Origin: a virus
Taxonomy: Duplodnaviria > Caudoviricetes
Length of the DNA stretch: 54,477 nt
Virus record (IMG/VR): IMGVR_UViG_3300017956_000016
Coordinates: 1-54,477 of that record
Strand: one strand, 5' to 3'
A program made the translations under genes and the position numbers. Below are positions 4,206 to 37,500 of this stretch, one piece after another; the first letter of the stretch is position 1, and the number at the start of each line of letters is the position of its first letter. The notes under the pieces are model-generated. The model was given only the letters and a program-made list of their open reading frames with translations, did not search any database and was not told where the DNA came from.

Positions 4206-7200
4206 TCAGCGAGTGAGAGCGGCGAGAGCAGCCTTGAGTTGGGTAACAGTTGTAATACCAGCGTCATTACCGATCGCATTAAGAGCGGTATAGATGTCAT
4301 CAATATCAGCATCATTAGCATCTGCTGTTGCACCCTGAGCAGCAGTTGCATAAGCAGTGCTGTTGGTAGTAGCAGCACTGCCAAGACCAAGGGTAGTGCG
4401 AGCAGCAGATGCAGATGCATCATCAATCAGAGATGCACCGAATGTGCTGATTGTGGGGGTGCCAGTCAGATCACTATAAGCACCAGAGGTTGCGACAGTT
4501 GCAAGGTCGGCAGGTTGAATGGCAGAGTCTGCCAGTGTGCCTTGAGCAGCGGTAGCATAGTTTCCAGAAGCAGCGGTGATCCGAGCATCGGCGCGAGCAT
4601 CTGTGTAGTAAAGGTTAGTAAGACCCTCAGAGAGATCGTCTGTGCTTGCTGCAGCGATTCGTGCATCTGCACGAGCATCTGTGTAGTAAAGGTTGACAAC
4701 ACCCTCAGTGATGTCATCAGTTGTCTTAGTTGCAAGGCGAGCATCCCATCTTGCAGTGGTGTAATACAGATTTGATCCTTCTGCCAGGTCGGTTGTAGTC
4801 TTGCTGCTGAGGTCGAGGTTTGCACCAACTTGAAGTGCAATACGAGCATCAGCAAGTCCATTTACCTCAGCATCAGTGCGCTCGGTGAAGCTAAAGACAC
4901 CAGTAGAAGCGTTGTAAGACAGATCCCCAGAAGCCCCAAATGCACCCCTAGCACGAGAATTTGTAAAGAAGACATTCGTCGATCCCTCAGTTACGTTGTC
5001 GGTATTGATATCCGACTGAGTAACCGACAGACCACCGCTACCATCATGTGTAATACCCACTCCATATGTAAAGTGGCTACGAGTGCGAGCAGCAGTTGTG
5101 AAGAGGTTTGTAGATCCTTCAGTCAGATTGTCTGTATTGATATCAGATTGGACTGCACTCAGAGTCAGCAGGTTACCTGCATCATCGTAGGTAGCAGAGA
5201 TGCCAGTGCCACCACTGATCAGAGCAGCAACACGATCATCAACTCTCTCATCGGTGAAATAAAGGTTGCTAGTGCCCTCTGGAAGACCGTCAGTCGTGTG
5301 ATTAGCGATGCTACCAACCTGAGACAGGTTATAGGTAATGGTGCCAGTCACATTCAGGTTACCAGCAACTTCAAAGTCAGTAGTTGATTTGAAGTTGGAA
5401 ACCGTGAGTCGGTTTTCAAATGGGTTATAGGTGAGGTTAGTGGAGTCTGTGCGGACCTCGGTGTATCCCGTGTTTGCAGAGACAAACGGGACATAGTAAG
5501 TAAGGTTAGAAGATGCAGTCTCTGTAATGTTAACCAGATCTGCCTTATCGGCGGTGCCTGTGAGGTTACCAGTAACATTACCAGTGGTCGTGCCAGTGAC
5601 AGTAAGGTTGCCAAGGACGCTAGCGTTGGTTGTAACTTCAAGACTGTTGAGAGTTGCCAAACCAGCACCAGTGATGTTACCAGAAGTGGATTGCAACTCA
5701 ATCTTAGTCGTGCCAGCACCGTTGTTGAGTTGCAGTGCCTTAGAAGCGCCCTGCAGGACAACGTTATCGTTGAAACGAGTTGTGCTGTTTTGAGTGATTG
5801 TATTGTTGAAGGTTGTGGCACCGTCAACATTCAGTGTGCTGTCGAAGTCAACAGCATTAACAACATTCAGTGTGCTGTTGAGAGTTGTAGCGCCAGTAAC
5901 ACCCAAAGTGCCTGCGATATCAGTATTACCAGAGGTGCCTTGGACTGTAAACTTGTTAGTGTTGATCAGCAGAGATCCACCAACGTTTGCAGTTGCACTT
6001 GTAGTGATACTGGAGGTGTTGATCGTGGTGAATGTCGATGTGCCAGTAACACCAAGAGTGCCACCGATATTAACATTACCACTTGTGCCATTCAGAGTAA
6101 TGGTGCCAGCGTTGTTGGGACCAAGTGTCAGCAGTTGACCGAAGTAAACATCTTCAGCAACGGTCATACCACCATTGCTCAGTCGGACAGCAGCATTAGA
6201 GCTGAGACTTGAGGGGTTTGTGCCGTTGGAGAAGAGGACTCTACCTCTGAATTCCTGACTACCCTTCTGGACCACGTTACCATCTACAGTGAAATCACCA
6301 TAAATTTGGATGTCAGCCCCAAAGGCAACGTTACCAGCGAATGAAGCGCCTCCAGAGACCCTCAGAGCGCCTCCAGCAGTGAAGAGTGCAGGTAGGTTGG
6401 TAGTGTTTGTTGTATCAGTGATAGTGACAATATCATTGACTTCCAGAGTGCTGTCCAGATCGACAGCGCCAGTGACATTGAAAGTATCGTCGATGACAGT
6501 AGCACCTTCAACATTCAATGTGCCTTGAATATCGGTGTTACCAGTTGAGGAAGCAACGCTAAACTTAGTGATCGAAGATCCATTCTGAATTCTGATAAAC
6601 TTAGATGCAGAATTAAGAGTGATGTTGTTGGTGAAGACAGACACACCAGCCACATCGAGTGTGCCATTGACTGTCAGATTATCATCAACAATCGTTTCAC
6701 CAGTAAAGGAATCTAAGGTCAGAGCACCAGCAGATGTGCTGATCTCAGAAGATGCATCAACACCGATCTTGATGTTGTCTGCTGTGATATCAGTAGAGGT
6801 GATCGCATGATTAAAGGTAGTGGTGCCATTGATGACATGGTTGTCTGTGCCAGCATTACCAATAGTGGTATTGCCATCAACTTGCAGAGTGCCAGTTACA
6901 AAGAGGTTTGCCTGGTTGTAGATAGCACCAGTAGCAGACTGGAATGTTAGAGCACCAGAGTTAGTATCGATGACGTTATTAGCAACAACGCCGATTGTGA
7001 TGCTATCGATGGTGACATCAGTAGCAGTCATGGCATTGTTAAACTGGACAGTGCCCGTCACAACGTGGGAGTCTGTGCCAGCATTACCAAGAGTAACGTT
7101 ACCGTCAACTGTAAGTGTGCCATCAATCTGAGTGTTGCCATCAACATTCAGGTCAAGATCAACGTCAAGGTTGTCGGTGATGTTAACAGTGCCACCGACA

Positions 7201-19007: not shown

Positions 19008-20543
19008 TTAGAACTCGATTACGACTTTAATGTCTTCAATTTGGTCACCAGCACGAGTGATGGGACCTCTATTATCTATGTAAATAATTCTTCCCGAATT
19101 TGGCTCAATCTCAGGATCGGCATAACCATTAGTAAATGCCATACCCAAGTCATATTCAGTGTTGTTGATAACACGAGTGGAAGTGCCAGATACAATCGGG
19201 AAGTTGATATCTGGGTCTCCAGACGTGCCAGAGATAGCACCCACAATCGGGTTACCACCGTCAAACTCTGTGAGACTACCTGTGATCTCAGGGAAAATAC
19301 CGTCAATTCTATTTTGATAGAATTTCAGGACTTTAGTTGTGCTATTCCAAGAAACAACACGACCACGAGCAGTCACTTGCTGACCACCAACAGTCCTTGA
19401 CTGAGTAACAATCTCGTCTGTTGTATAGTTGCCAGTAAATGTTGGCGAGAAGATTGCTGCCTTTGTGCCAGACAAAGTTAATTCTGCAGTCAATTCCTGA
19501 GTGCCAAATCTATTGGGGTTGAGCAAAAGACCAATACGACGATAATCGTTATCAGTCGGGAAGTCTCCGCTACCCTCATCGTAGGTAAACTTAGTGTTGA
19601 TCATCACACGATATCCGCCCAACTCTGTGTCTGGGGCAGCACCGTGACCAGTCGGGGGAGGAATGATAACCTCTACGTTAGCACCAGCGCCAGCGCCAGC
19701 ACCGATACCATTCACCTCGTCAATCACAACCTTACCGAAGGTGTAGTTAGATCCACCAGAAGTCACTGTGGCAGTAACCAACTTACCACCATCAACCACC
19801 AGAGAAACACGACCACCAACGCCGTCGCCCTTGATGGGCACGTTTTCGTAAGTGCCGTTGTTGTAACCTGTGCCAGAAGATCCAATAATAATAGTATCGA
19901 TCTCACCGCCAACTGCATCAGACACAACAGCAGTGTCATTCAACACTGGCATATATTCGTTGGAGAAGAATTTAAGCACCTGTCCCACAGGGATGGTGTA
20001 GAGATACTTCCAACGATAACCGTCAGCAGTTGTAATAATAGATGTCGATGTGCCTGTTGGCTCAACCGTGGAAGGTTTGCCGTTGGGGTCACTGGGAGAC
20101 GTGCCGTTGTAGATACACTTGTAAACTTGATACGATGAGTTAACAACGTAGAAGTCGGCGTCAAACAGTTTAGTTGCACCAGAAGATGCAGTCTTTGTTG
20201 AGGAGTAGTCATGACGATACATGTCATAGACATAACCCAAACCACCAGTTGTCTGCTCTGGGGGAATCCAGTTAACACGACGGACAACCTGAATAGTGTC
20301 GTTTGCCAAGACTCGCTTCAGGGAGATCATGTCAGCGAAGTCGTCAGAAAACTCCTGCAGAGAGTCTGTCGGATCGGGGGGATCATTCTCATTATCCCAA
20401 GACTGAGGGCGACCAATAAACACATAGAGTCTATCCCTGCTTGCGCCAGCATCCAAATCGGACTGGGCGGAATCAGGACCCTCAAGTGATTTGATAAATC
20501 GCTTCGCAGTAAAAATTCTAAACTGGTCGGTAAGTAGCGCCAT
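19008..20543 (-). CDS. gp8: Baseplate wedge subunit
   Basis: LYVFIGRPQSW, VVRRVNW, YDMYRHDYS, FYVVNSSYQVYKCIYNG, DGYRWKYLYTI and SGRIIYIDNR.PITRA.DQ.EDIKVVIEF motifs. Confidence 0.95.
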   Translation of the reverse strand: MALLTDQFRIFTAKRFIKSLEGPDSAQSDLDAGASRDRLYVFIGRPQSWDNENDPPDPTDSLQEFSDDFADMISLKRVLANDTIQVVRRVNWIPPEQTTGGLGYVYDMYRHDYSSTKTASSGATKLFDADFYVVNSSYQVYKCIYNGTSPSDPNGKPSTVEPTGTSTSIITTADGYRWKYLYTIPVGQVLKFFSNEYMPVLNDTAVVSDAVGGEIDTIIIGSSGTGYNNGTYENVPIKGDGVGGRVSLVVDGGKLVTATVTSGGSNYTFGKVVIDEVNGIGAGAGAGANVEVIIPPPTGHGAAPDTELGGYRVMINTKFTYDEGSGDFPTDNDYRRIGLLLNPNRFGTQELTAELTLSGTKAAIFSPTFTGNYTTDEIVTQSRTVGGQQVTARGRVVSWNSTTKVLKFYQNRIDGIFPEITGSLTEFDGGNPIVGAISGTSGDPDINFPIVSGTSTRVINNTEYDLGMAFTNGYADPEIEPNSGRIIYIDNRGPITRAGDQIEDIKVVIEF

Positions 20544-20568: not shown

Positions 20569-20576
20569 TATTTATG
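20569..20576 (-). promoter_or_regulatory. T4-type late promoter (CATAAATA)
   Basis: NATAAATA motif in the short intergenic gap 25 nt upstream of the gp8 ATG. Confidence 0.8.
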
Positions 20577-20580
20577 GACT

Positions 20581-22422
20581 TTATTCATCCTCGTTTCTGA
20601 GTCTGTTTGTATACTCTACGACCAACATATTGGTTGTTGCACCAGTCTGTTGACCTAATATTTGCTCGTTAGCAGTAAACTTGACTGCAACTCCAGGAAG
20701 GATTGACTGTAGACTCAGATAATATTCCCCAGACTTCTCTGCAGCAACAAAAGAAGTTACAGTTGCAGCAACACCAGACACCTGTCCAACAACAGTCTCT
20801 CCAACAACATATGTTGCATTAGGAGACTTGTTGTTTACTCTCAATACGGCGGTCGAGGTGTGTGCATCTCCATCTCCAAGAGCACCAGCACCAATGATTG
20901 TTGCCAGTTGTTGTGGAGATCCACCGTCATAAACTTTATCTGCAAGTTGGAATAGTGTCAGGTTGACTCCACCCAACTCCTCTTCAATACCATATTTGGA
21001 TGATGCAATACCACCGTCAAGATTTGTATCGAATTCAAATTCTGTGCCAGTATTTACCAAGTCGGGGATGCCGTCTCCAGCACCATCCAATTCGTCATCA
21101 TCTTCAAATCGTCTATTTAGAATTAGACTGAGTGGATTTGTAAATGCAACAATGTCATCCCCAATGGATTCGACAAGGGTGTGTGGAGATACGCCAGTGG
21201 CAGATGACTGTGCAGCACCAGCGACAAACTGGATAGATTTGGTTTTGTCGGCAGAATTGCCACCATCAATAAAGGCAAGCTCGTCAACCTCAAAGGTCAA
21301 ATACAGAGCATGGGATACTGGATCCCAATCATAAACAATAGCAATTCTGTTTGACGCACTGCTCTGATATCTTTTTACTTGGTCGGTAACGTTAAAGATA
21401 TACTGAGATACGCCATCTGCATCATCTTGCAATGTATCCAAAAAGACCTTCTGGTCATATCTAAAGTTTGTGCCTCTATCGCAACCAGTGAATGATGTAG
21501 CAGTTTTACCTGTATATCTAACGATCTCTTTGTTGAGAAGAATTTTACCAGATCCAGGGAAGGGTGCAGTTGTCTGCACATTGATCGTTGTATCACTGGG
21601 AGTGACATCCTCAATCAGACCAGTGATATTGTAAAGAATTGAGTTAAGTGACTGTCTGTTTCTTTGCTTCCTAATTAAGTTTGTATCTCTAGCAAAAACA
21701 ACTTTTGGAGGATTGGTATATCCATTTCCAGGACTATCAATATCAATACTTGTAATTGATCCAAGATTGATATATGCAGTTGCCGTAGCACCCCTACCAC
21801 CACCACCAATAAGTTGGATGATGGGTGATGTTTCAAAGAATTCTCCACTATTGGTGATGGTAACCCCAGTAACCTTACCAAACTGGTTAACGCCCACAAC
21901 ACCAGTTGCACCATCACCACCGCCACCGCTGATAATGATGTTTGCATCTTCGGGGGTATAGTTTCTCCCCTCTCTTTCGATCTTTAGACCAGTAACACCG
22001 CCAGTGACAGGTACCAACTCTGCACCAGTGCCACCGCCACCTATTACTCTTGCAGTTGTGCCGCTGAAGTAGTTATCACCATTTGTTGTGACTTGGATAA
22101 AATCCAATTCACCAGTTGGAGTGAGATTGATCTTACCTTTTGCCCCATATGCACCATCATCAGTGCTTTCGATTATGAGACGAAGGGGATCGTAACCCTC
22201 TCCAGGATCAATAACCTCAACGGAAAGAATCCTGCCATTGGCAATGACAGGTCTTAAAACCGCTTCTCTGAGCGGTGTGCCACAATTTTGGACTGTTAGT
22301 TTTGGAGGATCTGTTGGATCGTAACCCGACCCACCTTCCACAACATAAACGTCTCTAACCCCAAAGACACTATTGAATTGGGGAGAAATTATAGCACCAG
22401 ATCCAGGGACTGTTCTTGGCAT
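20581..22422 (-). CDS. Virion structural protein, baseplate-associated (613 aa)
   Basis: Repeated GxGY..PxVxIxGGGGxGAxA modules as in gp7, plus EIVRYTGKT..SFTGCDRG. Sits between gp7 and gp8, coupled by a TAATG overlap. Confidence 0.75.
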   Translation of the reverse strand: MPRTVPGSGAIISPQFNSVFGVRDVYVVEGGSGYDPTDPPKLTVQNCGTPLREAVLRPVIANGRILSVEVIDPGEGYDPLRLIIESTDDGAYGAKGKINLTPTGELDFIQVTTNGDNYFSGTTARVIGGGGTGAELVPVTGGVTGLKIEREGRNYTPEDANIIISGGGGDGATGVVGVNQFGKVTGVTITNSGEFFETSPIIQLIGGGGRGATATAYINLGSITSIDIDSPGNGYTNPPKVVFARDTNLIRKQRNRQSLNSILYNITGLIEDVTPSDTTINVQTTAPFPGSGKILLNKEIVRYTGKTATSFTGCDRGTNFRYDQKVFLDTLQDDADGVSQYIFNVTDQVKRYQSSASNRIAIVYDWDPVSHALYLTFEVDELAFIDGGNSADKTKSIQFVAGAAQSSATGVSPHTLVESIGDDIVAFTNPLSLILNRRFEDDDELDGAGDGIPDLVNTGTEFEFDTNLDGGIASSKYGIEEELGGVNLTLFQLADKVYDGGSPQQLATIIGAGALGDGDAHTSTAVLRVNNKSPNATYVVGETVVGQVSGVAATVTSFVAAEKSGEYYLSLQSILPGVAVKFTANEQILGQQTGATTNMLVVEYTNRLRNEDE

Positions 22423-28500: not shown

Positions 28501-31500
28501 GGTTGCCAACCAGCAGATGTTGGGCTATAGATGATGGACTTGACGTATTCTCTGATACGAGTCAGATGATAGATTAGGTGCGTGCGAGTGATGTTTTGAT
28601 AGACAATAAAGTTACCGTCACCATCAAACCAAGAGGAAAGTTTATCAAACGCAGCATTGTTACCTCTAGTGATGATGTCGTAGATCACAGAATCAATAAC
28701 TTGATCTGCAAAGTCTGCATCACCAGCGTAAGATGGGTAGAAAGTGACAGTTTGATCGTATGCTCTCTGCTTGATTGCCTCTCTGTTGAAGTGGATCAAG
28801 CGTGCATCAACTTTGCTGCTGTTGGTGCCAGCACCAAAGGCAGTTTGATACATATCGAAGATGGTAGCGATTGCCTGACGCACGTCATAGCAGCTGCCCT
28901 GGTTATATTCCGTGGGGGCAGTATATGTCCCATCAGTCTTAGTGACCGTGGTGCCATAATAAGTAAGACCATTGCCAGCAATACCAGCATCCACGCCTTG
29001 AATTAGGATGTCAAACAATGTGTCGATTGCAGTTGCCTGCTGACCACATGCCTGATTCCAATCTGCTTGGTTTGTGCTTCCAACAGAGTAGTCCCAAGTA
29101 ACGGTGAGATCTCTGATGGGGAGATCGCCAGAATACTTACAAGGCCAGATGTTGGGAAGATCGCCAGAATAACCACCGCCAACTGTCTTAGGATATGTCT
29201 GGGCGTTGAGACCAGCAGGATCTGCAACAGTATCAGTGAGGACTTGAATAAGGGCATCTACAGCGTCATCAACGTCAGTGTCGCTAACGGCAGAAGAAAT
29301 AGCAGTCACGCTATATGTGTTGCCAGCAGAAACAGTCGGATTGCCACCCTGATAGATCTGCTTGGCAATATCTCTAGCAGTATTGAAAATCCAAATGGAC
29401 TCATTTGCCTGAGAAGTGATGTGTTGCAGATTGCCAGAAGAAACGTAGTATTCTGCAGAGGTGACCATCATGTTATCGCCACCATTTTGCAGGTTCCAGG
29501 ACATCCAATACAGGATGTCTGCAACGTCATGCATACAATTTTCAGATCCACCAGGAATCACCAGGGAAGGATATTGTGCTTGACCACGCAGCACTGCTTC
29601 CTCAGCAATGAAACGGATGTTTCTTTCAATAGATCTTGCAGCAGCAATTCTATTGTCGGAAGCGCCATTTCTTTCGTAGGATTCGTAAGTGTAGGAGTTG
29701 TCGTTGTGACCATCGATGTTGAAACGACCAAAACCGTTTCTAATGGTAAGAATTGCCATTTCCTTGGCAAACTTAAACACAGTCTTAGTTGCTTCCTCCT
29801 CACCTTCAATGTGGGAAAGGAATCCATCTTCTCTGATATAGAGTTGACCTGCTTCAAAGATTTCAGCGTTGCCACCAAACCTAAGGTCATGGACCAGGGC
29901 GCCAAGAATGTCAACAACGTCATCAACGCAATTTTGACGACCACCAGGAACCTGGAAGTCTGCAAACTTGGACAAGTCATTCATCATGCCAACTGCTTCC
30001 TTGGCAATGATGTGCTTGTTGCGCTCGATCATATTTGCAGCGTCAACATAGCGATCTGACTGATTTCTAGTCTGATCAAACTGCTCAGGATCCAGAGTAA
30101 CTGTAGTGTCTCTATATGCACTTCTGGAGGTGTAGATTGCGCTGTAATATTCATCTTGATAGAGTGCAGCAGCTCCATTGCTAGCAGCGGTTTCTCCAGG
30201 TCCGAGCAGCAGGTTGTTTGCTGCCTTCATGCACAAATCCTTAGCAAACTCAAATGCTTCAAGCATCGGTTGCAACTCATCTGTGATAAACAGAATTTCG
30301 TTGTCGGAATTGAGATAGAAGTCAATCGCAGCCTGTGTTTGGTAGTTGCCACCAGTCTGGAGGTCGGCAATAAGGGCGGGGATGATATAGTCCTTCATGT
30401 CCCGAATGCAAGCATTGCGATCGGGGATATTCAGAGTATTGACAGTTTGCCCACCGAGACTAATTGTGTAGAGGTTTTCAATGTAACCGACTGTTTCTTC
30501 AGCGATATAATCGCGGTTTTTCCAGATCAAGTCACCAGCATTTCTAAATCTGTGACCAGTAGGAGCAAGCTCATCAGCGATATAATCGCCAAGGGTGTCG
30601 AGTCTTGTTTCTACCTGAGTCGTGCCAGAAAGGGTATGGGGGATGCGAAGTTTGGTGGTGTATGTGCCAGACAGATCGGCAGATGCTGTGTTGATCACAT
30701 ACTTGCAGAGTTTGATGACTTCTCTCCAAGAATAGAGAGTCTGCAGCAACTCACTGCCAATAAACTTCAGATCGCCACCCTTGTTTCTATAGAAGCGTGC
30801 GTTGACGATAACGTTGTAGTTACCACCTTCCTTGAGGTCTTGGACAATAGCAGGAATGATGTAATCTCTAGTATCTCTGATGCAGATATTTGTGCCACCA
30901 TAAGATCCAGCAGCAGCACTGTCACCAGGAATAACAAAGTCGGGATAGTGTGCCTGCATGATGCCGACTGCTTCTTCTGCAATCCAAGCAGCATTCGCAG
31001 AAATGATGTCTGCAGAATCTCTGTAGATTTCATTTCCGAGATCAATCTCTTCAATAGTGATACGCTTGTTTTCATAATCAACGGCACCAAGAGTTGCAGA
31101 AGAAATGTTAGTGCCAGACAAAGTAGCAATCACATCGCCAGTGCCAACAACAGCGCCTTGCTGAGCATTCAAACCAAGGACAACACCAGTCCTGGTGAAG
31201 TCTGTGATGGTTGGACTTGTGAATGCAGCAGTGCGATCTGCATATCCTTTCCTGACCAGGAAGTTATCGAGATATCCATCAAGGTTATCGCCGCCGCCAG
31301 CGTTAGATCCAACATGACATTCTTGACTAATACCATAGTTGTTATTGTCAGCATCGCTGGAAACTTCAGCACCATCAATAAACAACTTTGTCGTTGATGT
31401 CTCAGAATCTTTAGAAACTGAAATGTGATACCATGTATCTACCACTAGACCAGCAGATGTTGTCTCAGAAACAGCAGTGCCGTTTCTCATCCAAGAAACT

Positions 31501-34500
31501 GTGTTGCCAGAGTTAGAAACAATCAGATAACCAGCGGAAGTGTCGCTCACATCCAGTCTATTATCGACCAGAGTAATTGTGCCCGTCAGAGAATTGAATC
31601 TGAAGTAACCTTCGATTGTGAAAGATCCATCTTCAAAACCAAAGTCATAGCTACGAGTTGCTTGACGGATATAGGGGCTACCGCCAGAGGTAAACGAATA
31701 ACTTGAAGTATTGTTTTGAATATTTGTGTTGTAGATGACGTTGCTGATGGAGACATTGTTTGATTCCAGACTGGAGTTTGTAATCAACTCTCCATTTTGG
31801 AATGCGCCTGTAATATTTCCACCATAGATCCACTTCAGACCAGAGTTGGACCCCTTGATTGGAGTGGTAGCATTGCTAGTGATACCTCTAAGTGTTTGAC
31901 CAGCAAAGAAGATCTTATTGCCACCCTCAGCATCTTTGTATGCAAATTTAGTAACACGAATAACCTCACCCGACTGATATCCACCATCGGTGATGATAAC
32001 CTCAGTGGGAGCAGTGCGGGTAGCATGTGACATGTTACCGTTGGTGTAAGACAGTGTGTAGATGCTCAGAAGAGAATCGACAAGTGCCGTCTCAGTGTTA
32101 CATGGAGTTAGAGATTGATCTGGTGTGATCGATACATCGAAGAATTGTTTCTTGCCATGGACGCCAGTAACAGCGACTCTAGGATAGAAGTAATCACCAC
32201 CAGCATGAGTGAAGTGCAGGTGTTGGAGGATGACACTAGATCCGTTGCTGAATGCAGGAGTGCCATCAACTGTGATGCTTAGAGTGCCATTCACTTCATC
32301 ATAAGTTGCACTCATGACGTTGTGGGTTGCTGATGCAGTGCTGACTTTGCCAGATCCAACATAAACAAAGGAATCACCAGGATCCAGAGATACAACAGGG
32401 ACAGCGACACTGAAGGTATTGCCAACTAGACCAGAAACGGTATGTGCCGTTGCCGAATTCTTGAGACATTCTTTAGCAATAGTTGCAACTTCTGCATAGA
32501 TGTTTGTAACTTCAGTTGGTGTTGCAGTGGAGTTATCGTATGCGATGGAATATGTGCCAGCATCATAAATTCTGCTGTTTCCACCATAACGAATGTCATA
32601 CGCGATTGCTTCAATGACATCTTTAATGTCGTCGAGGCAGTCATTGTCATTGCCCGTGGAAATGCTGAATCCAGGGTTTGCTGTCTTATAGACAAACAGA
32701 CCTTCTGCAGCAATAAATTCCTTATTCTTCAGGAGAAGGTCAGCAGCATCAATGCCATTGTTGCCGCCTGCAGTTGTGGGATCTGCATAGAGACCAACGA
32801 TCTTAGGACCACCAACACCTTCTGAAGTATAAGAAATAGCACCAGTTAGGTTGTGGGTATTCTCCGCAGCGAGAGATGTTGTGATGATATTTGTCAACTC
32901 TCTGACTGTTTGCTGGATATCCAAGCAATTAGTCAGGCTTGTGTTGTTACCTGCGCTGTAGTTTGCGTCATATGTGTAACCAGGAGCAGTGCCACCATAA
33001 GATGCAGGATCATTAAGGACTGCCAAGTCCTTAACAAACAGGAGGTTATTCATCGCATAATACATCATGTCTCTTGCTTTCAGCAGTGCTGTAAGAGACT
33101 CAGGCACCTCGCCATACAGACCATTCAGCAGGTAGTTGCCAGTTTCATCAAAATAGTTTTCAGCAAAGAATTGCGAATTAAACTCACCACCAGAAGCAAC
33201 ATCATTTGCAATGGCGTCAACAAAGTATCCAACATCTCTACGGCACTTCTCTTGGTTTGGTGTGAAGGAAGGCTTGGTCGATGCAGGAATGTCTAGAAGA
33301 TTTCCAGCAGTCAACGCCTCATCTTGCCATGTGTAAATTGTTGTCAGAGCAGCTCTAACATCAGCACAGGACTCGGGATCGTTGTTATCTGTATTGGTGC
33401 CTGGGGTGCCATATGGATCTCCAGGGGATACATCTGCAGTAATTGATTCATCGACATAACCAACTGCTTGATCACTGCTATTGACAGCAGTCCAAAGACC
33501 ACCATAGTTATTTGTGATTGCAGATTCGCAGTAAGCCTTTGCTTGACCCAAAGCATAAAGTAATTCAGAAGTGTTTCTGTCGTAACTTACAGTATTTGTA
33601 TCTGTGAAATACTCATTGATCCACTGCAGTGAATAGAGGTTGCCACCAGAATGAAGATCCAGTGCTACCGTTTCAACCCAAAGTCTCAGGTCGCTCAGGT
33701 ATCCGTCCTTGTCACCAGATGGTGTTGCAGGATACTGGGTCTTAAGATCATCATATGCATTGTGGATGATCTTATCAATATTTTTAATCAGTAGGCGATA
33801 AGCATCTCTATATCTGGAGGTGGTGTTTGTTTGGATATCTCCAGGGTAGTAGAAGTCTGGATGCACAACTGCAATTTCCCTTTCTGCTCTGTCAATGATT
33901 TCGTCCTTATTGAGACGAATCAGACGAGCGGCATCATATGCTCTATTGGATGCATTTGTGGTTACATTTCCATAGAAAATGGATCTGTTTCTGAGTTGAT
34001 CTCCCTTAGCGAAAGATCCTCCAGTAAGATTCTCATATTCAACTTCAGTGCTTCTAACCTCTTCAAAGTCGAGGAAGTCTTCATTGATTCTGGCACTGGA
34101 ATCTGTTACAGAGACTGGAGTGATGCTGGACTGAGAAATGTCATCAAGAATGATGTTGGGATTCTGAATAGCAACCAGTCTTTCATAAATCAGACCGAAG
34201 AATGTAGATCCTTGGTTAATGATAAGAGTGTCAACTGGTTGACCATTGTTGGGATCCAGGTATGGGCTGATGTAGATAATTTGAGCGACAATCTTACTCG
34301 TTGCCGAATAGATATACTCATTCAATTTGAGGTCAAAGATACCAGTTTCAAATCTTGCTGTGCCAGATGTCTTACTAACCAACAGTTCGTCAGTCAGGTT
34401 ACCATCTTCGTCAATGTTTGTGGTTTCGACCAGGGCAGTATCGCCCTCAAAGTTGGTGATAGACTCGCCAAACTTATAGATGCCCTCAGTATTCAAGAGA

Positions 34501-37500
34501 GTGACGCTTTCAACGATTGCGCTGAAAAGAGTTGTCCTCTTAATCAATTCACTGATCTCGAAAGGACCATCAGTGATGTTGATAACATCAATGTGGAATG
34601 TCCCAGAGTCAACAACAGTTGCATATGCCTCAGAGAAGTCTCCAGTAACTTGCTGACCGATGGTCGGGAAAATACCTTGAGGGTCGGTCAGTTGGATTCT
34701 ATAGACGGGGACAGTTGCAACTCGGATTGTGCGATATTTAACTTGAGATGCTGCCTTGGGTGGCTCATCAAAAACAATTTGACCACCAACAACACTATAT
34801 GCACTCTGGGGTGCTTGGATCACGCCATTCAGGGTGATAACCAGTTGGTTGGAATTGACAATAACTTGCTCACCCTCCACCGTAATTGGGAAGGTTTTTT
34901 CAATTCCATCAAATCTGCCAGAGATGTCATCGATTTTCTTGACGATAGATGTCAAGATTTCCTCAGAAGAAGTCAGTCTCTTATTTCTAAACAGGACTTC
35001 AGTGTTGTTGTAGTCTGTGTAGACGGGTTCGGCAGCACCGAAAGATGTAATTTGGTTGACGTTGGAGTACTCGTTAATGTTGACCTGCTTGATAAACTCA
35101 GTGCCAACACGACGACCAGAAACGTCCTTACCACCAGTCAGTTGCAGCTGACCAAACAGTTTGAAACCAGCAGGGTGGTTGTTATCCAGAATCTGTTTCT
35201 TCCACTTGGTGATGGGAATCTCAGAGCTGATAACGTAAGAGAAGTTTTGGTAGAAGAAGGAGTCTTGGATCTTCTGAATAATCTCAGAAGGTTTACCAAC
35301 ATCATCTGTGAAACGACCAGGAGTCGAGGTCAGGGAGTCAATATTCAACACACCCTTGGCGATGCTCAGGTTGTCGATAATACCAGATGCTTTGGACACC
35401 TCACCGTTGATCTTTTCTCCAACAGCAAAGTTGCCTGTATAGTTGACAATCTTCAGGATCTTGGGACCAGACTGCCAACCAGTGTTAGTGGAGACATAAC
35501 CAGTCGCAGATGCCAATTCGGGGCTGCTGCCTTGATAAATTTTCTCACCAGCAAGGAATCTAGAAGTTGCCACGACTGCTTCTGCTCTACCACCAAAGAC
35601 CTCAGTCAGAAGAGTCTGACGACCTTCACCTTGAGTCAGGAAAGTGATATAGTCACCAGCAGCTGCTGCCTCTGGTGTCAGAGCAAATCTCAACTGGTCA
35701 GAATCCAGACCATCAGCGATTGCATAGTAAATCTGACCTTCAACCAACGAAGTCAAACCAACACTGCTAGGTTTGGGCAGGATGCCAGTCGTTGATCCAA
35801 CATCATCAGCACGCAGTTGGACTTCAGCAGCAGTGGTAATGCCATGAGGGAAGTTAAACTGCAGATAGTTGAGGTCGAGGTTAATGACATAGTTAAACTC
35901 AGACTTCAGAGTAACCACGGGCTCGGAAGAATAACCACTACCAGGATTCTTGATTTGAATCTCATTCAAACGGTTGTTTTTCACAACAGCAACTGCTTCG
36001 GCACCTGTGCCACCACCGCCAGAGATGACAACAGCAGGAGCAGAGGTATAACCAGCACCAGGATCAGTGATCTTGATCTCTGTCAGAATAGATGTATTGA
36101 AGAGTTGCAGGTTGACTGGGAAGGAAATCTCAGGACGCAGAGTGTAGTCATGGGAATAACCGAAACCAAACTCATTATTCTTGAGTCTCTTGATCTTACC
36201 AATGTTTTTACCTGTCAGGAAGACAGAAGCACCGCTACCTTCGCTGGGGATGATAACGCTCAGAGCAGCACCAGATCCAGCGAGAGTGGGTCCAAGAATA
36301 CCTGTGATACCATCAACATCGATAGATGCTGTTGTGTATCCTTTACCAGGATCGGAAACTTGAGCAGAGGTGATAGCACCAGATCCAGTCTCATCATCAA
36401 GAGTAACTGTAATTGTAGCAAGACCACCTTCTCCGTCACCAGCAATAGGCACCTGATAGTAAACTCCAGGTTGATATTCTGTGCCACCATCAATAATTTC
36501 GATTCTTTCAATTTGACGGAAAGATGCAATATCAGAAACCACAGGAAGTTTCTGATAGAAACCACCAGGAGACACAAGTTTGATTGTGTTAATCGGACCA
36601 ATCGCCTTAACGGAAGTGGTGGAATAGTAACTATATGGGTTACCATTTTCATCATCTTGGACCTCAGCGTTAGTGGTCTCTGGCTCAACAAGAAGTGGGA
36701 ATTTGAATTCGGTTTGACTTACAACCTCAGAGATTTTGAAAGTGCCATCGAAAGGTGTCTTAATGACATCGATGAAGGAATTAGATCCAACGGGGGAATC
36801 TGCACCAACTCTTGACGGGTCGAAGTAGTAAGAAATATTGGTAACGTTACCAATGGCAGAGAATTTCACATAAGGCTGGCTACTAACACCAGACACACCA
36901 GGGGTGCCAACTCTAGTAATGTTGTTGAAAGAGTATTCGAGTTTATACTGGTTGTCTTGTGCAAACGACAGATAGTAACCGAAGTTTGTGCCATCACTAA
37001 CGTCAAAGACATATTGATGGTTTCTGATGAAGTTAATCGTGGGATGCTTAGCGTAAATGTTTACACTAGCAATAGTGCCTTGGTCAAATGTTGGAGCACC
37101 AGTAGCGGTGTCTCTGATCTTGAAGATGAATTCTCTAGATCCAAAGACTTCTTGGACGAAGAAAGATCCATTAAATTCATCTGCAACAAATCCTTCAGTA
37201 TAAAGGACTTCATTGACCACATAATTGTGGGGAGTGAGTGATGTTGCGTAAATCAGATCAGTGAGAGCACTGCTGCTTCTCTTGATATCTTTCTTGAGTG
37301 TGCAAACCAACTCAACTTTCTTAACCGAGGCGAAACCAGAAATTGTAAGGACCTTTTCCTTATCTGCACCCTGGTCATCGATTGTGATATTTGCAGAGCT
37401 GAGAGCGACCACATCACCAGGAATGTAAGAAGATGCAGGTTGCACATCCAGAATTTTGACTTGGTAGTTTGCGCCAGCGTCAAATCCAAGGAATCTTGCA

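Follow-up and report, generated by a model that had tools for sequence, protein, structure and literature searches.

Phycobiliprotein beta subunits (CpcB, CpeB and the cryptophyte chains; PF00502) combine a globin-like fold of helices A to H with a Cys84-Arg86-Asp87 group in helix E, an aspartate at position 39 and a second cysteine, which ends a long G-H loop and precedes the end of helix H by 19 residues. Counterparts of these traits can be found among the phycobiliprotein-like units, about eight in number, of a single giant virion protein encoded in IMG/VR record IMGVR_UViG_3300017956_000016, the DNA of a virus (Duplodnaviria; Caudoviricetes) with the baseplate gene order of T4-like cyanophages. 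The entire record of 54,477 bases, which amounts to a genome about 30% complete, is called the window here. Five cysteines of the giant protein can be read as the second bilin-attachment cysteines of phycobiliprotein-like domains in the baseplate, the bilin being put on by the phage's own CpeT, a reading to which we give a probability of roughly 0.4. The protein is encoded as follows.

25515-45893, minus strand: giant open reading frame (ORF) of 6792 amino acids (aa), at the gp7 position of the T4-like cyanophage baseplate module

Unlike the beta subunits, the phage units are devoid of the X-Y helices, so that no alpha-beta heterodimer or ring is expected; they occur as fused and seemingly nested domains of a 6792-aa virion protein; their G-H loops are 40-50 residues long or hold whole inserted domains; and their sequence likeness is limited to helices B-E. 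The C-x-[DN]-[VI] pattern that begins with the second cysteine of the phage units is not known as a host pattern. Among larger antenna proteins, the core-membrane linker ApcE is similar in harboring a phycobiliprotein-like domain with a loop insertion inside a large multidomain protein, but it is a cellular antenna protein with only one such domain, it attaches its bilin without a lyase and it is not known to have a beta-155-type site. The systems formed by the T-type lyases CpcT/CpeT (PF06206) and beta-Cys153/155 are also comparable, since a T-type lyase gene can be found in all 25 repeat-bearing genomes scored and a substrate-like cysteine lies at the equivalent position; however, the proposed substrate is here a phage structural protein instead of an antenna subunit, and most of the phage lyases are shortened and divergent. 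Regarding T4 gp7, the likeness is one of gene order and annotation, the giant gene lying downstream of a gp6-like gene in the same run as gp10-like and gp8-like genes, whereas phycobiliprotein-like, Laminin_G_3 and other inserted modules set the giant protein apart, as does its length, which is about six times that of T4 gp7. A full-text literature search found no publication describing phycobiliprotein-like domains in cyanophage structural proteins.

Sequence Evidence for the Units

With the Pfam profile PF00502 (Phycobilisome), aa 3900-5800 of the giant ORF score 53.4 bits summed over the repeats, the gathering cut-off being 22.2, while the single units reach 15.3-21.5 bits, each below this cut-off, in alignments limited to profile positions 27-84 (helices B-E). 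A hidden Markov model (HMM) made from four of the units finds eight to nine of them in the giant ORF, to which they are confined among the ORFs of the window. Two alignments of homologues are referred to below, A4 with 80 rows (38-79% identity to the window) and A3 with 81 rows (34-84%). The units, all on the minus strand, are the following.

33858-33950, minus strand: R0, A/B helices (aa 3982-4012) with Asp D3987; HMM match aa 3982-4051, HMM positions 2-69 only
33303-33827, minus strand: R1, complete phycobiliprotein-like domain (aa 4023-4197; HMM match aa 4025-4143), ending with the C4176 helix
32859-33281, minus strand: R2, helices E-F-G-H (aa 4205-4345); HMM match aa 4202-4285, HMM positions 36-119 only
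32034-32762, minus strand: R3 (aa 4378-4620; HMM match aa 4378-4496), with A/B, E (C4419), F and G, an inserted beta-rich stretch and the C4598 helix
29214-31031, minus strand: units R4 to R7 together (aa 4955-5560), each found with the unit HMM
aa 4955-5110, minus strand: R4, E-helix C5004, own helix H with Thr in place of Cys
aa 5112-5270, minus strand: R5, E-helix C5162, stops after helix G
aa 5279-5387, minus strand: R6, E-helix C5322, stops after helix G
aa 5412-5560, minus strand: R7, E-helix C5453, own helix H with Asp in place of Cys
28509-28817, minus strand: R8 (aa 5693-5795; HMM match about aa 5690-5790), A4 profile match, no E-helix Cys; model A helices 292-390, predicted local distance difference test score (pLDDT) 60-93

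A profile of the 80 homologues aligns a K-C-x-R-D-I-G motif with Cys84 of CpcA chains in the PDB (E 0.014-0.6, helices B-E only), and phmmer with the 1801-aa stretch as a single sequence gave allophycocyanin beta-18 as its best PDB match (E 0.4). The Cys84-Arg86-Asp87 feature of helix E in the PF00502 family is present in the giant ORF: R2 has an invariant K-C-R-R-D motif in which C4217, the Arg and the Asp are each kept in 80/80 rows, and six C-x-x-D motifs can be found in the giant protein of the window. The E-helix Cys is absent from R1 and R8 of the window phage; across the homologues, this column of R1 holds Cys in 65/80 rows and Tyr in 15/80 (the window and 14 others), and C4122 is kept as Cys in 13/80.

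Predicted Structures

Two pieces of the protein were modeled with AlphaFold2. Model B covers aa 3975-4365 and was made from 80 rows of IMG/VR homologues, with a pLDDT of 82.2 and a predicted template modeling score (pTM) of 0.84, and model A covers aa 5400-5800 and was made from 81 such rows, with a pLDDT of 65 that falls below 50 at residues 170-293, R7 and R8 being well modeled. Against 48,161 PDB representatives, the best match of R1 (model B residues 49-221) is phycoerythrin beta (5aqd_M, residues 30-184), with a Z score of 15.2 and a root-mean-square deviation of 2.3 A over 143 residues. The top eight chains are all phycobiliproteins or ApcE, ranks 2-8 being taken by ApcE bilin domains (4xxi_A, Z 13.4; 7eyd, 7sc7 and 9wg7, Z 12.3-12.5), allophycocyanins and phycoerythrin alpha at Z 13.4-11.6, and globin-coupled sensors come next, at Z ~10. 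R7 (model A residues 3-158) aligns with residues 25-177 of phycobiliprotein beta chains at Z 15.7 and, in the comparison with C-phycocyanin beta, its residues 13-158 are aligned to 34-172. With Foldseek, every match listed for model A was a phycobiliprotein or a derivative of one, the best having an E of 5.3e-3, so that 0.001 was not reached, and the whole two-domain model B returned helical proteins without relation to these, apart from a phycobiliprotein at rank 32.

Both R1 and R7 are thus predicted to have the globin-like phycobiliprotein fold, with helices A, B, E, F, G, and H. The N-terminal X-Y helix pair is absent from the units, as the structural alignments start at chain residues 23-34 and the units begin with their A/B helices, leaving no room for it.

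The Five Cysteines

The original prediction had singled out five helices headed by a cysteine, had matched this residue to the beta-155 site, the substrate site of T-type lyases, and had likened the spacing in two of the helices to that of CpcB helix H. All five peptides are found where it had placed them, in the minus-strand ORF 25515-45893, and the C-x6-I-x3-F-D spacing noted in the peptides at 28890 and 29046 is confirmed in the sequence.

33366-33368, minus strand: C4176, motif C-A-D-V, at the end of R1; model B helix 203-222 begins at the next residue
32925-32927, minus strand: C4323, motif C-L-D-I, in R2; the residue before model B helix 350-369
32100-32102, minus strand: C4598, candidate helix-H Cys of R3 and the weakest of the five
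29046-29048, minus strand: C5616, after R7; heads model A helix 218-239, pLDDT <50
28890-28892, minus strand: C5668, motif C-Y-D-V, before R8; heads model A helix 270-287, pLDDT <50

Four of the five (C4176, C4323, C5616, and C5668) directly precede a predicted helix, the last two in the stretch where pLDDT is below 50. C4176 is Cys in 80/80 homologues and is followed by Asp or Asn at +2 and by Val or Ile at +3 in all 80; C4323 is Cys in 58/58 covering rows, the other 22 of the 80 ending earlier; C5616 and C5668 are Cys in 81/81 rows; and for C4598, mapped by BLAST only and hence with less reliability, Cys is found in 5/7 loci. Judged from these alignments, the conservation of the cysteines exceeds chance, and aa 4020-5800 contains 17 of the 29 cysteines of the giant protein (binomial p = 2.3e-4). 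HMMs of the C4176 and C4323 helices detect each other and also the C5668 helix (E 1e-5 to 1.6e-4), which appears as a paralogue of both (E 1.6e-5 to 4e-5); their match to the C5616 helix is weak (E 0.0027-0.3), and they do not match the C4598 helix.

Register at the Beta-153/155 Site

The structural alignments reach the last residue of the beta chains: residue 221 of model B is aligned with residue 184 of the 184 in phycoerythrin beta, and residue 158 of model A with residue 177 of 177 (e.g., R-/B-phycoerythrin and the cryptophyte chains) or residue 172 of 172 in C-phycocyanin beta. C4176 is residue 202 of model B; helix H reaches its aligned end 19 residues later. The T-type lyase site of C-phycocyanin beta is given in a review as Cys153 (PMC10452541), and since this residue is also 19 residues ahead of residue 172, the register of C4176 equals that of beta-153/155. 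Applied to R7, the 19-residue register leads to residue 139 of model A, an Asp in the window and a Cys (C-x-[DN]-V) in S-WAM1 and S-SZBM1. The equivalent cysteines of the 177- and 184-residue beta chains are presumably Cys158 and Cys165.

Taken by the ends of the alignment ranges, two independent models therefore support a Cys column at the beta-153/155 position. Of the claim that the helix-initial cysteines match the beta-155 site, the part concerning C4176 stands by structural register, whereas C4323, C4598, C5616, and C5668 may occupy this position in helix H by virtue of helix order, motif paralogy and a nested arrangement of domains.

Possible Nesting of Domains

In model B, a complete R1 is flanked by R0, which corresponds to the A/B part of a unit (helices 8-20 and 22-36), and by R2, which corresponds to the E-G part (helices 238-260, 264-271, 289-307, and 350-369); the pTM of 0.84 applies to this whole piece. 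R0 and R2 look like a single outer domain, with R1 inserted between its helices B and E, in which case C4323 would be the helix-H Cys of the outer domain. Similarly, R5 and R6 stop after helix G and exactly two extra Cys-helices follow R7, so that the C5616 helix may close R6 and the C5668 helix may close R5 as helix H. As the partner domains R5 and R6 lie outside the folded piece, this would also explain the low confidence of model A around C5616 and C5668.

A split unit can also be found in the cyanophage P-TIM40, where R7 is divided between aa 5622-5661 and 5975-6109 of the giant protein, with some 310 residues separating the A/B helices from the E-H part, another example of the insertion of a domain into the B-E loop.

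The Presumed Partner Aspartate

The pyrrole nitrogens of the phycocyanin beta-155 bilin form hydrogen bonds with the conserved beta-Asp39 (PMC6614406). Invariant Asp residues are located at positions 13 and 56 of A4, and HMMER aligns them with position 39 of phycocyanin alpha chains. The second of them is the following.

33804-33806, minus strand: D4030, Asp39 equivalent of R1, invariant at A4 position 56

By analogy with phycocyanin, D4030 is presumed to be the partner of a bilin on C4176. Among the units of the window, the Asp39-equivalent residue is Asp in R0, R1, R3, R4, R6, and R8, Asn in R5 and Ala in R7. In the 18 rows of A3 that cover the relevant columns of R7, Asp occurs together with Cys in 15 and Ala together with the absence of Cys in 3, with no mixed row. 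The three rows of the latter kind are the window and two close relatives; the joint loss is a single evolutionary event, but its pattern fits a paired site. R4, where Asp is present without Cys, is an exception to the pairing.

Occurrence of cpeT and of the Units

The original prediction had described cpeT as a common cyanophage gene whose target is not settled. Sullivan et al. (2010) count cpeT in 12 of 16 cyanomyovirus genomes and state that its role "remains unresolved" (PMC3037559). In a later article, cluster A and B phages are said to carry T-type lyases only (PMC10665884, 2023).

The joint occurrence of both elements was counted in 29 genomes, namely 23 RefSeq phages and 6 IMG/VR records (G002-G007), leaving out the window (30% complete) and the record G001 (19% complete), which have the repeats and in which no cpeT was found. 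A CpeT-like gene and the repeats are both present in 25 of the 29 genomes and both absent in 4 (P-SSM2, S-SM2, S-SSM7, and S-CRM01), and no genome has one of them alone. The PF00502 search of these four genomes gave no candidate. The CpeT of P-SSM7 and that of S-ShM2 fall below the Pfam threshold and were found with a phage CpeT query (E 2.4e-7 and 1.9e-8, respectively). In tblastn searches of phages, the repeats matched 401 records, two CpeT queries 169 and 113, and gp6 at least 435 cyanophage records. As such counts do not allow an intersection, and as tblastn misses divergent CpeT, they were not used for the correlation. In the gp6 tree, P-SSM2, S-SM2, and S-SSM7 form one clade (Shimodaira-Hasegawa-like approximate likelihood ratio test, SH-aLRT, 98), with S-CRM01 beside it. 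The correlation proposed between cpeT and the repeats is thus clean, all 29 genomes being concordant, but phylogenetically shallow, as it reduces to one or two independent events.

With regards to the window phage itself, CpeT-like ORFs of 152-155 aa are present in its closest relative contig (G002; 83-86% identity, 58% complete) and in P-TIM40. P-HM1, the source of the PhiCpeT protein that has been studied, encodes two proteins that together contain five or more units, and both cysteines can be seen in four of these. Co-folding R1 (aa 4019-4204, A4) with the CpeT-like protein of G002 gave scores of 0.54, 0.12, and 0.11, i.e., a median of 0.12 for a mark of 0.32, in a comparison made without controls, a result that counts neither for nor against binding.

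S-PM2 has its cpeT on the strand of a giant repeat-bearing "short tail fiber" gene and 1.4 kb upstream of it, and Syn1 has a similar arrangement, with cpeT 0.7 kb upstream of a giant repeat-bearing fiber gene, also on the same strand. The gene is within about 2 kb of repeat matches in the IMG/VR records G005 and G006 and within about 3 kb in S-RSM4. These five genomes form one clade with long canonical CpeT.

Several other features of the cpeT genes were noted. A 2OG-Fe(II) (2-oxoglutarate- and iron-dependent) oxygenase gene (T4-GC 104) is located between cpeT and the fiber gene in S-PM2 (165307-165888) and Syn1 (20572-21144), and in S-SZBM1 (35325-35774) such an oxygenase is annotated under or beside the CpeT-like match; cpeT, the oxygenase and the giant fiber gene may form a conserved trio. 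Long canonical CpeT proteins of about 175-189 aa (PF06206 E 1e-35 to 1e-43) belong to the S-PM2/Syn1/S-RSM4 clade and short divergent ones of 134-160 aa can be found elsewhere (E 1e-5 to 1e-11 or below the reach of Pfam), both forms being present in G006. Syn1 has an annotated full-length cpeT at 19938-20477 (PF06206 E 1.5e-35), yet the text version of Table 3 in PMC3037559 shows "-" for Syn1; the columns of this version may be shifted, or else the gene may have been assigned to another cluster.

Possible Roles of the Cysteines

On the bilin reading, the five cysteines would be beta-153/155-type sites in units of the giant gp7-position baseplate protein, each at the end of a long G-H loop and directly before helix H, with an Asp where phycocyanin has the residue holding its beta-155 bilin. 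The virion protein would be made in the infected cell, where a T-type lyase, most plausibly the short CpeT-like protein of the phage itself, would attach a bilin to the Cys by a thioether bond, and the virion would then carry pigment. What speaks for the suggestion that phage CpeT acts on its own virion protein is circumstantial, namely the Asp/Cys pairing, the concordance of 25/29 plus 4/29 genomes and the gene adjacency.

Fold, residues, their conservation and gene co-distribution are observed here, and the bilin and the lyase that would attach it are inferred.

A number of observations weigh against the suggestion. The PF06206 search found no cpeT in the window, which, for a fragment about 30% complete, is uninformative. 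On a quick gp6 tree, the co-occurrence takes two changes, of which the starred branches force one, and is equaled by 3-4 of 500 label shuffles. The adjacency of cpeT to fiber genes may be incidental, since it is confined to one clade and since cpeT is located in a known auxiliary-gene hot spot near gp5 (PMC3037559). P-SSM2 has pebS and ho1 without cpeT (Table 3 of the same article) and lacks the repeats, so that bilin synthesis by phages is not tied to them. As regards the structures, the note of the structural search tool itself warns that helical models may reach Z ~14 through arrangement alone; here, the fold match of R1 and R7 has sequence homology behind it. The beta-155 register comes from arithmetic on the ends of structural-alignment ranges and not from a residue-level alignment, and the likeness of helix H to CpcB is undetectable by HMMER, whose phycobiliprotein alignments cover helices B-E only. 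Finally, C4598 is supported by BLAST mapping in 5/7 loci alone, C5616 and C5668 lie in a stretch of model A with pLDDT <50, R4 (Thr) and R7 (Asp) have no second Cys, and R5 has Asn at the Asp39 position (with a Cys under the nested reading).

Nearly as likely is a structural role free of pigment, in which the phycobiliprotein fold would be a rigid helical building block of the baseplate or fibers, cpeT would act on host phycoerythrin, and the cysteines would, e.g., cap helices, bind metal, sense the redox state or form disulfides between subunits once the virion has reached oxic sea water. It would be in keeping with units that are devoid of the X-Y helices of true phycobiliproteins, score individually below the Pfam cut-off (15.3-21.5 vs. 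22.2 bits) and have in some cases lost one or both cysteines, and with the one or two events behind the co-occurrence of cpeT; reviews also assign the action of cpeT to host phycoerythrin (PMC2984593, PMC10452541). However, the conservation of Cys84, Arg86, Asp87 and the second Cys in 80/80 rows, plus that of Asp39, at an identity as low as 38%, is more than one would expect of a pure scaffold, and the joint loss of the Asp39 equivalent and the Cys in R7 also speaks against it. Regarding disulfides, C4176 is retained in the 15/80 sequences that have no E-helix Cys in the same domain, which implies that this pair is not an obligatory disulfide, and the two Cys sites are probably far apart, as they are in the phycobiliprotein fold.

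It can also be hypothesized, with much less likelihood, that a bilin is attached by the T-type lyases of the host (CpcT/CpeT/RpcT), or autocatalytically as in ApcE, and that phage CpeT does some other job, e.g., as a bilin carrier or on host phycoerythrin. The bilin-binding domains of ApcE are indeed among the best structural matches (Z 12.3-13.4), and the majority of the CpeT-like proteins of phages have only 134-160 aa and a divergent sequence (PF06206 E 1e-5 to 1e-11), two of them being missed by Pfam. Moreover, Gasper et al. reportedly found in 2017 that PhiCpeT of P-HM1 binds phycoerythrobilin tightly, with no transfer to host CpeB shown. Attachment by other means would nevertheless leave unexplained both the strict co-distribution of CpeT and the repeats over 29 genomes and the adjacency of cpeT in the S-PM2 clade. 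Least probable is a mere coincidence of register, with Cys-helices that are not helix H but, e.g., inter-domain linker helices: although the register was taken from range ends, C5616 and C5668 are in low-confidence parts of a model and helix H is not aligned by HMMER, two independent models give the same 19-residue register against beta chains of 172, 177, and 184 residues, the aligned ranges extend to the last residue of the chains, and the Cys varies together with its conserved Asp39 partner.

Genomic Setting of the Giant Protein

The closest named relative of the window is P-TIM40, with 56.9% protein identity across the region of the giant ORF, and both have the order gp6-like gene, giant protein, 531-aa protein, gp10-like gene, 613-aa protein, gp8-like gene, and DUF4815. 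Homologues in other phages are labeled "virion structural protein," "baseplate wedge initiator" or "similar to gp7," the last being the annotation in S-RIM2, and the ORF matches PHROG 701/18802, "virion structural protein"; its assignment to the gp7 position is based on this gene order and on the annotation of the other records. Among the 401 phage records that match aa 4000-5700 in tblastn, 398 are named Synechococcus, Prochlorococcus or "Cyanophage," and the remaining ones are two Pseudomonas phages and one "Marine" record.

Other modules and records deserve mention. A Laminin_G_3 (concanavalin-like lectin) domain (E 1.8e-11) separates the unit group R0-R3 from R4-R8 and is possibly a receptor-binding module.

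31257-31643 of the window: Laminin_G_3 domain of the giant ORF (aa 4751-4879)

In S-PM2 (55555-58083) and S-RSM4 (169954-173325), tandem arrays of a 131-residue module can be found in a second or third giant protein; the module corresponds to positions ~195-326 of the A4 profile, i.e., a Cys-helix followed by helices E, F, and G, so that the repeats are not restricted to the gp7-position protein. In the RefSeq record of S-PM2, 16 transfer RNA (tRNA) features lie within the coordinates of the giant coding sequence (168556-173383) and bear the locus tag of this sequence (S-PM2t009), which looks like a mismatch of annotation or coordinates.

Light and the Significance of the Units

Adsorption fails in the dark for P-HM1 and P-HM2 but not for P-SSM2 (Liu et al., 2019; PMC6628666), and the light-dependent adsorption of S-PM2 is independent of host photosynthesis (PMC6628666). 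CpeT-like genes and repeats occur together in P-HM1 and S-PM2 and are both missing from P-SSM2, a correspondence across three genomes only that can be taken as a lead. A wider proposal, that the baseplate and fiber proteins of most marine cyanomyoviruses are CpeT-loaded chromoproteins with beta-155-type and perhaps Cys84-type bilins, forming a light sensor of the virion that gates adsorption, appears unlikely to us. If true, it would explain why phages carry only the T-type lyase and why S-PM2, P-HM1, and P-HM2 need light for adsorption while P-SSM2 adsorbs in the dark.

cpeT is among the commonest "host-like" genes of marine cyanophages and its target has been open since 2005; a beta-155-type site on their own baseplate protein gives phage CpeT a concrete candidate substrate. 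A bilin on the virions would mean pigmented cyanophage particles and the first phycobiliprotein-type chromoprotein outside the photosynthetic antenna or antenna-derived sensors, and it would give molecular access to light-dependent adsorption and to the diel rhythm with which the most abundant phototrophs of the ocean are infected. Were no bilin bound, the giant protein would still represent a striking recruitment of the host antenna fold as a building block of the virion.

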